Source: Squalus acanthias
Lineage: Eukaryota
Assembly (NCBI GenBank): GCA_030390025.1
Contig: CM059431.1
Coordinates: 145,330,001-145,394,000, forward strand
Length of the DNA stretch: 64,000 bases
Reading direction: 5' to 3'
The notes under the pieces are model-generated. The model did no database searches. It saw nothing but the letters and a program-made list of their open reading frames with translations, and was not told the origin of the DNA. Shown here piece by piece: positions 19,273 through 62,909 of the stretch (positions within the stretch are counted from its first letter, which is position 1; every line of letters starts with the position of its first letter). A program made the translations under genes and the position numbers.

Positions 19273-20061
19273 GAATTTCCAGTGACCTGTGAACATCGGA
19301 CAAACATATTGGAGAACGATAAAGCCAATTCACCGTCCAGCGTTCAGTTTCAGCGACAATTTCACACCAGCTTTCATCACATGTTGCCAGCGGACTGCAG
19401 CAAATGCAATTACACTCACCGAGCCCCAGATTCATTCCTCAGAATCCCCACTATGGAAGCAGGAAACTGCTCCCAATACACAACAGGACGGGCAGCTTGT
19501 GAAACACAAGGAAAGTTTTGGTGTGTAGACTTTTCGTAGAACTACAAACAGTGCGGTGTGACAATATAAACTGTGAGTGTGTGTATGGGTGTCATGTTTA
19601 TATATAAAGTGTGTGTTTGTGTGATGAGTGCGATGCTTTGTATGTGTGTCAGTTGTACATTTATTTTGTTTTTGTGTAATATACATCAGGTTATAAATCT
19701 ATAAAGATCTATGATTGAGACTGTGATATTCCAAATGGATTTTGGGTGTATCAGTGAGCTAGTGATGATGAAATGTCTCTGTAGCTGTGTGTTCTTTATC
19801 AATGCATTCGTGTGTATCTGTGTTCTGTATACATATGTAATTCAAATGTAAGATAGAAATAAATAACCAGAAAATACTGTTCAACTGAAGACAGATTCGC
19901 CCGAATAAATGAATCAATATGATAGATCCATGTAAACAGATTTGTCAACAGCAGAGCCGTGGAATCCATTTACAGAATATCCAACACAAGAAAGCAGAAA
20001 CATGTCTATATTTAACAGGGATAAACCCAATTACATCTACAGCGGTTGCAATATTTGTAGC

Positions 20062-20080
20062 CAGCGCCCCCTGGTGGTCC
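20062..20080 (-). promoter_or_regulatory. Near-consensus CTCF motif
   Basis: Reverse strand ggaCCACCAGGGGGCGCTg matches the CTCF core consensus CCACCAGGGGGCGC exactly. Confidence 0.55.
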
Positions 20081-20139
20081 AGTGTTTAGGATGTGGCGCG
20101 CTCACCGCGGGGACCTCAGTGCGACTCCCCGTCAAGGAA
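20068..20139 (+). tRNA. tRNA-Glu(CTC) pseudogene
   Basis: Ungapped 72-nt match, about 56/72 by hand, to the recalled vertebrate tRNA-Glu(CTC); B box damaged (gtgcgac). Confidence 0.85.
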
Positions 20140-20235
20140 GTAATTTTTACAAAACAGTTAATCCGTCAGACGAAAGATAATTGTTTCAATCACGATGAAT
20201 AAACCCACAGCATTCTTGTTGCACACCGAAGGAAA

Positions 20236-20302
20236 TGTTCACCGAGTGACCAGAGACATTAATCATATGAGGCGAAGGTGATAACCGCGACATTACATCA
20301 AC
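20236..20302 (-). tRNA. tRNA-Val pseudogene, heavily decayed
   Basis: tgaggcgaaggtgataaccgcgacattac versus reverse-complement tRNA-Val tgaggcgaacgtgataaccactacactac. Confidence 0.65.
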
Positions 20303-20652
20303 ACCTAATTTTTTGGCCTCAGGTCAGAGACAGTGTTGAGGTGAAGTGCTGACTCTGTTTAACACACATTTCACCGCTCGAAACGACACAAGTCACACGG
20401 GAAAAATGTCCATTGCAAAGACATTAAACTACCGAAGGAGATCCCGGGTGTGCTTCCCTGAATCTTCTGAATCGGATCACTCCCGTTAGGAGCCATTTGG
20501 ACGGAAACCGGCTGCCCTCCGCCTCCAGGAAATGGCCATTCTAATTCTGTGACTGCGGCGAGTTTTGTTTGGACGCGGTCACAACCGATTCTTATCAAAA
20601 TCACGTTTCTCCGATGGGATATTGAGGGAATAATTCAACATGATTCAGCTCT

Positions 20653-22070
20653 GACTAGCACAGCTGGACTGGGATCACCCGGGCCAAGCACAGCTGGACA
20701 GAGATACCCAGAGACAAGCTCAGCTGGACAGAGATACCCAGGGACTAGCACAGCTGGACAGGGATACCCAGGGACTTGCACAGCTGGACATAGATACCCA
20801 GGGACTAGCACAGCTGGACAGTGATACCCAGGGACTAGCACAGATGGACAGAGATACCCAGGGACTAGCACAGCTGGACAGGGATAAACAGGGACTAAAC
20901 AGCTGGACAGAGATACATAGGGACTAAACAGCTGGACAGAGATTCCCAGGAACTGGCACAGCTGGACAGGGATACCCAGAGACTAAACAGCTGGACAGAG
21001 ATACCAAGGGACTAACACAGCTGGACAAGGATACGCAGGGCCGGACACAGCTGGACAGGGATACACAGGGACTGGCACAGCTAGACAGGGATACCCTGGG
21101 ACTACCGCAGCTGGACAGAGATACCCAGGGACTAGCACAAATGGACACGGATACCCTGGGACTAGCACAGCTGGACAGGAATAACCAGGGACTAGCAAAG
21201 CTGCAGAGGGATACCCAGGGACTAGCACAGCTGGACAGAAATACCCAGGGAATAGCAAAGCTGCACAGGGATACCCAGGGACTAGCACAGCTGGACAGGG
21301 ATACCCAGGGACAAGAACAGCTGGACAGAGATACCCAGGGACTAGCACAGCTGGACAGAGATACCCGGGGACTAGCACAGCTGGACAGAGATACACAGGG
21401 AATAGCTCAGCTGGACAGAGATACCCGGAGACTAGCACAACTGGGCAGGGATACCCAGGGAATAGCACAGCTGGACAGAGATACCCAGGGACTAACACAG
21501 CTGGACAAGGATACGCCAGGACTGACACAGCTGGACAGGGATACACAGGGACTGGCACAGCTGGACAGGGATACCCTGGGACTACCACAGCAGGACAGAG
21601 ATATCAAGGAACTAGCACAGATGGATAGGGATACCCTGTGACTAGCACAGCTGGACAGATATACCTAGGGACTAACACAGCTGGGCAGTGATACCCAGGT
21701 ACTAGAACAGCTGGACAGAGATATCCAGGGACATGCACAGCTGGACAGGGATACCCAGGGACTAGAACAGCTGGACAGAGATACCCTGGGAATAGCGCAG
21801 CTGGACAGAGATACCCAGGTACTAGCACAGCTGAACAGAAACTCCCAGGGACTAGCACAGCTGGACAGGGATACACAGGGACTAGTTCAGCTGAACAGAG
21901 ATACCCAGGGACTAAACAGCTGGACAAGTATACGCAGGGACTGACACAGCTGGACAGGGATACGCAGGGACTACCACAGCTGGACAGAGATACCCAGGGA
22001 CTCGCTCAGCTGGACAGAGATACCCGGGGACTAGCACAGCAGGACAGGGATACCCAGGGAATAGCACAGC
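20653..22070. repeat. 30-bp minisatellite, ~47 units
   Basis: Consensus GACTAGCACAGCTGGACAGRGATACCCAGG. Confidence 0.97.
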
Positions 22071-61263: not shown

Positions 61264-61393
61264 CTTTCTATCTAAACAACACTGATGTTCGAGCAGACAA
61301 CTTCTCTGGAATAAGACCTGCTTCTAAACGTTCAACGAAGAAATGTGCATGAGAGTGCTGAATTCCTCTTTCTGTGTGGCCGATAAAACGCCG

Positions 61394-61468
61394 ATTACCG
61401 TAATGTGTCGTCGATCATCTTTACTTCACGCGCGCGACATATCCGTTGTTCGAACCCAGTCCGGAACA
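61394..61468 (+). tRNA. tRNA-Val(CAC) pseudogene
   Basis: attaccgtaatgtgtcgtcgatcatctttacttcacgcgcgcg..tcc...gttcgaacccagtccggaaca aligns end to end with tRNA-Val(CAC); B box GTTCGAACC intact. Confidence 0.7.
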
Positions 61469-61653
61469 GTATATCAGCGAATATTTTTTACTGACAGACA
61501 AGCGGTGCTGTTCAGTTTAATAAAAGTTGCACCGATACCTGGTGTCATAAGCAATGAACATTTTAAACCGGATTCCTATACCAGATTCCATTCTGCAAAC
61601 GTCCAATTAATTAATGTTGAGTAAAAGGCTCCTAAAATGCATTTTGTGGAGGA

Positions 61654-61697
61654 GCAGCGGAGAGAGCGCCGAATCCTCACCACTGGACGACCAGGGA
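61654..61697 (-). tRNA. tRNA-Glu(CTC) pseudogene, 5' 44 nt
   Basis: gcagcggagagagcgccgaatcctcaccactggacgaccaggga, about 39/44 by hand to the reverse complement of tRNA-Glu(CTC). Confidence 0.85.
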
Positions 61698-61965
61698 AGG
61701 TTGAATTAAAACGTTGCGATAATTTTAATTATAATTGGGTCTATCCGTTTTGGATACAAATTATTTTTTTACTTGTTTTACACGTAAATGCATTTCATAA
61801 CTCCGCTGCTTATAAATGTGTTTACATGTATCTGTGATATTTATTTATTTATTGGGGCATCTTTCTTCATTCCAAATGTACTTTTTAAGTATTTATTTCT
61901 CAGTATAGTAATTTTAAATTACAGGCAAATATATTTATATATAACACAGACCCACAAAAGACAAT

Positions 61966-62701
61966 GGCCCGCATTTTCTGATCGCAGGCCTCCCGCGTGC
62001 GGAGGCCTGCAATCTTGAAAAAATCTACGAAAATACCTAAGGGCTCCCTGGGCGCACACACTTCCTCTCCAAACTCCAAGTGCGCAGGACCCATGTATCC
62101 AAGGGTCGCATGTAGGTCGCAGCGTCCCTGGAATCACGTGGGCCAAGGGAGCGAATCACAGAAGGGACTCTCCCTTCATGCACTTGACAGGAAGACCTGT
62201 TAAATATGTGAATGGAGATCACCCCAAAAACAGTCAAACTTTAAATAAATATTTTTTAAAAATCAAATTTTTAAAATGACTTGAAATTACAATAAATTAA
62301 ATATTTTAATAAAAAAAAATATATATTTTTAAAAATAATATTTTTTTACGGGGCTAAAAATAAACTTACCTTTTTTAAAGTATTTTTAAATGATAAATCA
62401 GTGAAATTAAAAAAAAACTTTTTTTACTCTTAACCTGGTAAAAGCAGGCTTTACGCCTGCTTTTACCAGTCGTAAGAATTGTAAGGTTTTTCTGCGGACG
62501 GAGGGTCTCCAAAAAGCGGAACTATCCGCCCGCAGAGGCCCTTCTCCAGGGCAGCTGAAGGATCTGTCAAGAGCATTTTGACAGATTGGAAATGCCGGTT
62601 TTCAGCGCATGCGCTGTGCCTGCCTGAAACCGGTATTTCCGATGTCCCTCCGGGTTGGTGCACAGCGCGTACTCACCCGTCGGGATCGGAATATCTGGGC
62701 C
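61966..62701. mobile_element. MITE with TIRs and 3-bp TSD (PIF/Harbinger-like)
   Basis: TIRs ggcccgcattttctgatc / gatcggaatatctgggcc; AAT on both sides (61963-65, 62702-04); absent from the homologous left arm. Confidence 0.8.
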
Positions 62702-62909
62702 AATGATAATTTACAGAGATACACACAAATATATTTATAAACAGTGCACAGATAAACCAAGTGCATTTCGAAGCATCACAGAAGCAATTATTTATATTTA
62801 TATTTTTATAACAGGATATATCATAATATAAAAATAATCTATACACTGGCAGACATCGCACTCATCACATAAACACTAACTTTATGTATAAAAACTACAC
62901 CCACACAGG

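Follow-up and report, generated by a model that had tools for sequence, protein, structure and literature searches.

We propose, with a probability of about two in three, that the mirror-image arms around the large satellite in this stretch of Squalus acanthias DNA (the window, 64,000 nucleotides at full length) are decayed inverted copies of a multicopy tRNA-Glu/tRNA-Val unit on either side of a satellite that runs one way, that they are long-diverged paralogues which were rearranged tail to tail in a duplication-prone gene cluster, and that as a pair they have no function. Since the left copy is more closely related to many sequences elsewhere than to the right one, the structure is likely to be ordinary debris of gene-cluster duplication and neither a special palindrome nor a chromatin fence. 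Read in this most probable way, the locus is a further case of tRNA-cluster duplication together with satellite growth, and it carries a warning, namely that inverted paralogues flanking an expanded array can mimic a giant palindrome.

Extent and likeness of the inverted arms

A giant decayed palindrome had been claimed in a sequence-only reading of the window, and as far as the inverted arms are concerned the claim stood: all four of its reverse-complement anchors are exact, and the likeness which it had put at about 65-75% was computed as 73% (365 of 498 paired bases, with 19582-20108 aligned to the reverse complement of 62907-61657 and the MITE removed). The alignment score was 351, the maximum among 30 shuffles being 42, and the corrected distance between the arms is 0.30-0.33. 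Homology also continues past the tRNAs as claimed, the two flank halves with the tRNA excluded matching at 145/193 and 173/236 positions (0/200 dinucleotide shuffles as good for each), and between the GATA anchor and the end of the 5' half of Glu the alignment has no gaps, 62 of 89 positions matching. The inverted likeness amounts to about 530 bp per side, which is smaller than the palindrome first claimed; it ends within tRNA-Glu, and the Val neighbourhoods lie outside the mirror. It is the alignment inward to a symmetry centre that failed, in that the inner spacers (20141-20652 and 61264-61624) score at chance level (65/200 shuffles as good) and show no homology to one another. Outward extension of the arms past the LINE fragment was likewise at chance level (160/200 shuffles). 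The satellite does lie between the arms, but what had been called a single 40-kb block consists of two arrays, of a 30-mer and of a 31-mer, which abut directly at 22071 with nothing between them. Each array runs in a single orientation and has no centre of symmetry, and the interior is therefore no palindrome. The features are collected in Table 1.

Table 1. Features in and around the tail-to-tail pair (positions in the window).
Feature	Position	Strand	Basis or remark
Third tRNA-Val relic, beyond the claimed palindrome	18187..18253	-	49/76 to fetched tRNA-Val, 0/500 shuffles
Vault RNA (gene or recent pseudogene), oriented divergently to the third Val relic	18601..18689	+	Rfam RF00006
Left copy of multicopy unit: flank, Glu relic, Val relic, spacer, first minisatellite unit	19287..20679	+	Contig tiling; true outer end lies further out
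Left arm, where left and right units can still be aligned	19582..20108	+	365/498 identical to right arm
Full-length tRNA-Glu(CTC) pseudogene, mutated at G18, at T33 and in the B box	20068..20139	+	56/72 to fetched tRNA-Glu
Left tRNA-Val relic, without B box	20231..20302	-	49/76 to fetched tRNA-Val
30-bp minisatellite, ~47 copies	20653..22072	+	Tandem Repeats Finder
31-bp satellite, ~1263 copies, ~39 kb	22071..61263	+	Tandem Repeats Finder
Right tRNA-Val relic; A box decayed	61394..61468	+	47/74 to fetched tRNA-Val
tRNA-Glu(CTC), 5' 44 nt, 3' half gone	61654..61697	-	39/44 match, then 3/28
Right arm, interrupted by MITE, outer end cut by LINE fragment	61657..62907	-	Alignment
MITE, imperfect terminal inverted repeats, AAT target duplication	61966..62701	.	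Alignment
5'-truncated LINE fragment at which the right arm appears to end on its outer side	62901..63578	+	From base 62901 on, alignable to the LINE copy at 11557

The four tRNA relics

The order which had been read from the sequence, Glu forward and Val reverse, then the satellite, then Val forward and Glu reverse, was borne out, although all four tRNAs proved to be pseudogenes and none is an intact tRNA gene. That all four are tRNA-derived follows from comparison with fetched tRNA genes, against which the left and right Val relics were matched by 0/500 best-of-set shuffles; to each other the two Val relics are only weakly alike (17/500 shuffles as good). Likeness to intact genes ranges from 56/72 down to 47/74, and the relics are thus not conserved. 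ARAGORN at its normal threshold gave no tRNA genes and, when relaxed to 90%, the left Glu alone, thresholds below 90% yielding noise (17 to 123 predictions); Rfam scans gave no tRNA match in the scanned sequence. Searches for the arm motif in metagenome contigs and for the tRNA motifs in viral contigs each returned 0 matches. In a B-box scan the match at 61448 belongs to the right Val, the other three relics being without a B box. The letter said to be shared by both Glu copies was verified as a C at position 13, where the fetched tRNA-Glu(CTC) genes have T, and it is the sole derived letter common to the two copies within 44 nt.

The left arm belongs to a multicopy unit

The contig census covered the left unit only (19285-20690) and drew on two public runs, X1 and X2, whose contigs may come from a relative of the window's species. 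There were 132 contigs in X1 (12 at 99% identity or more, 23 at 95-99%, 50 at 90-95% and 47 below 90%) and 202 in X2 (24, 28, 64 and 86 in the corresponding classes), with the reservation that summed contig depth is not copy number. In both runs the contigs tile all 30 of 30 bins of the left unit, and they are mostly 80-95% alike, with a range of 80-100%. None of the listed pieces covers more than 374 bases of the stretch and no single contig spans the unit; records 2, 3, 9 and 10 nevertheless cross the edge at 19582 with more than 31 bases on either side, records 14 and 15 join flank, Glu, Val and spacer, and records 8 and 30 extend to the first 30-mer unit, the array being entered by 25-27 bases where 31 were needed to call the junction bridged. 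Since contigs tile the arm and overrun both of its edges, we take the left arm to be part of a multicopy unit with relatives closer than the right arm. Variant letters were carried by several distinct contigs, 13 in X1 and 15 in X2 at 19406, 8 and 6 at 19805, and 4 and 9 at 19948. It follows that the arms are not each other's closest relatives as regards the left one, whose relatives stand at 80-99% compared with 73% for the right arm, although a later copying of the whole pair could have the same effect. For the left arm this is one of the outcomes which the sequence-only reading had itself named as refuting its palindrome.

At the left Val, five of the six paralogue letters compared agree with intact tRNA-Val and one falls in a gap; because the paralogues are closer to the intact gene at these sites, the left copy appears to have decayed after leaving the family. 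Among the 40 variant sites listed of 273 rows nine lie in the arm, and at four of these the right arm goes with the paralogues, at three with the left arm and at one with neither, and one is in a gap. As judged from these letters, the nine sites do not resolve a tree of arms and paralogues into clear branches. Two further runs, X6 from organism B and X8 from organism D, covered 11 and 13 of the 30 bins; as the bins are few and partly covered by short TG-rich matches, these runs give no firm age.

The satellite arrays

The 31-mer array grew as blocks of 0.5-2 kb were duplicated in tandem, with exact 150-mers recurring at offsets of, for example, 589, 868, 961, 1333, 1860 and 2094. Its core 7-mer occurs 1064 times in the forward and 0 times in the reverse orientation, 454 distinct monomers were counted among 1233, and in every 3-kb bin the monomers show a mean of 2.5-2.9 differences from the consensus. 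A fixed higher-order period was rejected, the best lag giving 4.05 mismatches and random ones 4.33. It was also considered that the 30-mer and 31-mer, which have a 7-mer in common, might be inverted homologues around a palindrome centre at 22071; this was rejected, as in neither orientation are the two monomers more alike than chance allows (p ~0.28 and 0.89, the former for the inverted case).

That the monomers derive from SINE heads or from Pol III genes nearby was rejected as well, 15 of the 16 comparisons being unremarkable, and the likeness of the 31-mer to the right Val relic (6/400 shuffles) fails once the number of tests is counted. The 30-mer has no tRNA match in Rfam. A generic A-box pattern is present in the 30-mer and was matched by 624 of 100,000 shuffles; the 30-mer resembles the A box and D arm of one tRNA-Asn at 15/18 positions. 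Some satellites derive from tRNA-related sequence or from SINEs (PMC10702118). For the 30-mer the A-box pattern and the best-of-46-tRNA test point in different directions, its resemblance not being significant in the latter (105/300 shuffles as good), and the 31-mer has none (271/300). Neither array nor arm was found in any other of 214 DNA windows compared, and literature searches gave no paper on the Glu/Val unit or the arrays, though repeat libraries in supplements could hold the monomers.

Neighbourhood of the left unit

At a distance of 1-2 kb there are a third Val relic and a vault RNA, the latter matching RF00006 at 40.9 bits where the gathering score is 34. A broken NACHT gene lies upstream, and LINEs and an NLR-type pseudogene are present in the surrounding region. 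The distance from the Val 5' end to the 30-mer is 354 bp, and that from the Val 5' end to the vault RNA 358 bp. Homology of the whole pre-vault spacer to the pre-30-mer spacer was rejected (30/300 shuffles as good); the first 117 bp of the two spacers, which were chosen post hoc, gave 4/500.

Origin of the tail-to-tail pair

Under the preferred reading of long-diverged paralogues, an ancestral unit made up of the flank, Glu and a convergent Val would have been copied many times, giving subfamilies that differ by about 0.3 substitutions per site. An inversion or deletion may then have joined a left-type to a right-type unit, with the 30-mer meeting the 31-mer at 22071, and unequal exchange or slippage would have brought the 31-mer to 39 kb, the units being pushed apart until they took on the look of arms. 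Clustered tRNA loci are plentiful in sharks (10.1101/2025.06.08.657570). Of the earlier proposal of an ancient inverted duplication of a tRNA-cluster unit with a central satellite, the two old inverted copies were retained; a unique palindrome formed in place was not, the left arm being multicopy.

The nearest known systems are the 7.3-kb tRNA VNTR at human 1q23.3 (PMC4041453) and, in sharks and rays, the large tRNA clusters (10.1101/2025.06.08.657570); there, too, tRNA genes and their flanks are copied together as units that occur many times over in a cluster rich in repeats. Here tRNA-derived sequence was found, and repeated flanks for the left unit; in contrast to those systems, the copies are pseudogenes, inverted instead of tandem and 73% alike, with a 40-kb short-period satellite between them.

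The matching layout towards the centre and the abutting arrays would also fit one old inverted duplication which made the pair, the pair and its arrays being later copied whole as a cassette. This we consider possible but clearly less probable. Both sides share the same layout with a direct 30/31 junction, the paralogue contigs of records 8 and 30 reach the first 30-mer unit, and the derived letter is common to both Glu relics; against this, the inner spacers fail to align, the two monomers are unrelated, arrays and arms are absent from the other windows compared (214 windows only), and another Val relic has the vault RNA as its neighbour instead. A more far-reaching version, which we regard as improbable, would make the pair a cassette that recurs in the immune-gene clusters of sharks; its tRNA-derived inverted arms would carry and seed short-period satellites, and the 30-mer would have arisen from a Pol III gene, at its A-box end, in the place where a paralogous unit has a vault RNA. 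Should the pair recur as a cassette, it would offer a way to trace how Pol III gene clusters, the birth of satellites and turnover in the NLR clusters of sharks are linked.

In foldback-type elements and some DNA transposons long inverted ends surround internal tandem repeats. The pair resembles these in that long inverted ends enclose tandem repeats and in that the left end is multicopy, and it had been suggested to be a very large foldback-like element; a large foldback-like or terminal-inverted-repeat mobile element carrying tRNA relics and an internal satellite is, however, very unlikely, as there are no defined termini with a target-site duplication (no direct 4- to 10-mer is common to both outer arm ends within 12 bases of them), the family contigs run through the left edge and extend past the arm, the right edge is the start of a LINE fragment, and the arms are 27% apart.

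The suggestion of a tDNA-bounded heterochromatic or centromere-like domain fared no better, since none of the four relics has both A and B boxes. At centromere 1 of Schizosaccharomyces pombe (PMC2040200), tDNA barriers within inverted repeats flank a central domain; they are intact and transcribed, and the barrier requires an intact A box and the full Pol III complex. The arrangement here is similar in having tRNA sequences in inverted repeats around a centre, and one relic retains a B-box match, but the relics are decayed (the left Glu is without G18 and a B box, the right Glu without its 3' half and the left Val without a B box), the centre is plain one-way satellite, and the array is just 39 kb and lies amid LINEs and an NLR-type pseudogene. 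With the promoter boxes broken, it is highly unlikely that the relics today act as barriers, as far as their sequence can tell. Least credible of all is an assembly error that joined two loci through the satellite, for while near-exact block duplications make an array of 39 kb difficult to assemble, the window is without any N, the distinct monomers supply anchoring, and the first 30-mer unit is entered by contigs from other runs.

Later insertions in the right unit

The MITE and the LINE fragment are later arrivals in the right unit. The left arm has an empty site at the position of the MITE, which was thus inserted after the arms split. The LINE fragment we take to be CR1-like. A second copy of the MITE family, 66-70% alike, lies at ~17445-18150.

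Inverted units and their relatives

The inverted pair of pseudogene units is real and old, and it flanks an expanded satellite. With the MITE excluded, alignment of 19582-20108 with 62907-61657 gave 365 identities among 498 paired bases, at a score of 351 against a maximum of 42 among 30 shuffles. The two flank halves, tested separately and with the tRNA excluded, are 75% and 73% identical (corrected distances 0.30 and 0.33), which was equalled by none of 200 dinucleotide shuffles in either case. All four reverse-complement anchors of the sequence-only reading are exact, and the ungapped run into Glu which it described is present (62 of 89 bases identical). 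Its giant decayed palindrome, Glu(+) Val(-) mirrored across the satellite by Val(+) Glu(-), stands for the inverted arms but not for the inner spacers, the outer flanks or the one-way arrays. Arm similarity stops within the Glu anticodon arm; the inner 512 bp (left) and 361 bp (right) align at chance level (65/200 shuffles as good), and the outer flanks beyond both arms show no alignment above chance (160/200).

Features of the window
Feature	Position	Strand	Remarks
Reverse-transcriptase element	1-2620	-	frameshifted; seen in translations
NLR-type gene	3600-16000	+	frameshifted; NACHT, NLRC4_HD2 matches in 2/5 pieces scanned
Large-subunit rRNA fragment	17102-17247	-	eukaryotic, decayed; 37.3 bits, E 8.7e-06, below gathering score
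MITE, second family copy	17445-18150
Third tRNA-Val relic	18187-18253		outside claimed palindrome
Vault RNA	18601-18689	+	above Rfam gathering score
Left unit	19287-20679
Left arm	19582-20108
30-mer array	20653-22072
31-mer array	22071-61263
Right arm	61657-62907
MITE	61966-62701		AAT target duplication

Parts of 19280-20650 are contained in nine public runs from five organisms. Four of the 12 listed runs were compared with 19285-20690 at 80% likeness, for the left unit only, and 132 contigs from run X1 (about 55% of the run read) and 202 from run X2 matched. It should be noted that their source, organism A, could be a species related to that of the window rather than the same one, and that summed contig depth is not copy number. 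The contigs, mostly 80-95% alike to the left unit, cover 30 of 30 bins; several extend across position 19582, the apparent outer edge of the arm. Some join flank, Glu, Val and spacer, and none covers the whole unit. They reach just 25-27 bases into the 30-mer array. Among the 40 of 273 differences listed, a variant letter just outside the arm occurs in up to 13 (X1) and 15 (X2) distinct contigs, and those at three sites within it in 4 to 9 each. At nine sites displayed among these differences, the right arm sides with the paralogues at four, with the left arm at three and with neither at one, the last being a gap. In the left Val, the paralogues agree with the intact gene at five of six compared sites. 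This tiling, edge crossing and agreement at Val sites establish that the left arm belongs to a longer multicopy unit and that the window's copy is a decayed member of its family. Its relatives in X1 and X2 resemble it far more than the right arm does.

The history that we favour, at a probability of about two in three, has a flank-Glu-Val unit duplicated into old subfamilies, after which an inversion or deletion would have brought units of the left and right types together at 22071, tail to tail, and the 31-mer array would have expanded, presumably through unequal exchange. Of these steps, duplication is shown, as is the decay of the units. The main rival, a single old inverted duplication followed by copying of the whole cassette, is less likely but the strongest of the alternatives. 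A foldback element, also raised by the sequence-only reading, is improbable, as the apparent ends lack both defined termini and a target duplication: no direct repeat was found flanking them, and the right arm's outer end coincides with the start of a LINE fragment at 62901. Since the left arm carries its empty site, insertion of the MITE postdates the split of the arms. The two copies of this MITE family are 66-70% alike, each with a short internal palindrome, and we take the 3-bp target duplication to suggest the Harbinger type.

The nearest known parallels are vertebrate tRNA-cluster units that have been duplicated (PMC4041453) and the clustered tRNA loci that are abundant in sharks and rays (10.1101/2025.06.08.657570). 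The literature searched, supplements aside, gave no account of this Glu/Val unit.

Two observations from the contigs stand apart. Segment 20507-20600 has the peak summed depth of the left unit and is also present in several organism D contigs, and it may be a promoter-like piece that is repeated more widely; just after 20574 the paralogues have TGACGTCA, presumably a CRE-type site, lost from the window's copy. Runs X6 and X8, labelled as other organisms (B and D), hold near-identical pieces of 20118-20449 and 19901-20111 at depth 3-5, one with no differences over 151 bases, which could reflect either trace DNA or a source that is very closely related.

The tRNA relics

ARAGORN found no tRNA genes at its normal setting and the left Glu alone at a relaxed threshold. 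The references were intact tRNA genes taken from public contigs. Against these the left Glu agrees at 56 of 72 bases and has changes at G18, at T33 and in the B box; the right Glu agrees at 39 of its first 44, where similarity ends. Both carry C at position 13, as the sequence-only reading had noticed; this is the sole shared derived letter among 11 differing Glu sites. The left, right and third Val relics match at 49/76, 47/74 and 49/76, each score unmatched by all 500 best-of-set shuffles. With the search patterns used, none of the four unit relics passes the A-box scans, and a B-box match is present in the right Val alone. The proposal that the relics form a chromatin barrier is very improbable: the barrier at the fission yeast centromere requires promoter boxes that are intact (PMC2040200), and such boxes are missing here.

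Upstream of two Val relics, 18290-18307 and 61356-61373 match at 17 of 18 bases (0/500 shuffles as good), on the same strand despite the opposite facing of the relics, perhaps through a small inversion. Vertebrate-type tRNA-Glu, -Gly and -Val genes in public metagenome or bacterial-genome contigs (L004, L005, L022 at 301-772, L024, L029, L031) are likely host DNA in those assemblies.

The satellite arrays

About 47 copies of the 30-mer abut about 1263 of the 31-mer, whose core 7-mer occurs 1064 times forward and never in reverse. Divergence from the 31-mer consensus is even along the whole array; exact 150-mers repeat within it, offset by 0.5-2 kb or more, and no fixed higher-order period stands out. 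The two monomers have an inverted 7-mer in common, a relatedness no greater than chance. Simple tandem repeats normally form a large share of some shark chromosomes (PMC10620051). The window is free of N, and misassembly across the satellite is the least probable explanation of all.

The 30-mer is similar to the A box and D arm of a tRNA, matching one tRNA-Asn at 15 of 18 bases; when the test was made fairer by taking the best of 46 tRNAs, the match was equalled by 105 of 300 shuffles. A generic A-box pattern has 19 matches in the array and was found in 624 of 100000 shuffled monomers. Spacing from the neighbouring Val is nearly equal in two places: 354 bp between the left Val and the first 30-mer unit, and 358 bp between the third Val and the vault A box. 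Over their full length these spacers show no significant alignment (30/300 shuffles as good); their first 117 bp, a segment picked post hoc, align weakly (4/500). The likeness in A box and spacer distance (20653-20680, 18254-18620) may serve as a lead only.

The rest of the window

The window looks like a shark-type genome, with a broken NLR-type gene, LINE fragments and a vault RNA. The NLR-type gene contains LRR-like exon units duplicated many times over, at a period of about 312 bp, and is interrupted by LINEs. Pfam matched none of three pieces of the reverse-transcriptase element, which to us reads like a Penelope type. Several LINE fragments, which we take to be CR1, resemble one another. 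The vault RNA is divergent from the third Val relic. Its A-box match is intact, its T-run terminator is weakened, and a TATA-like run lies some 30 bp upstream.
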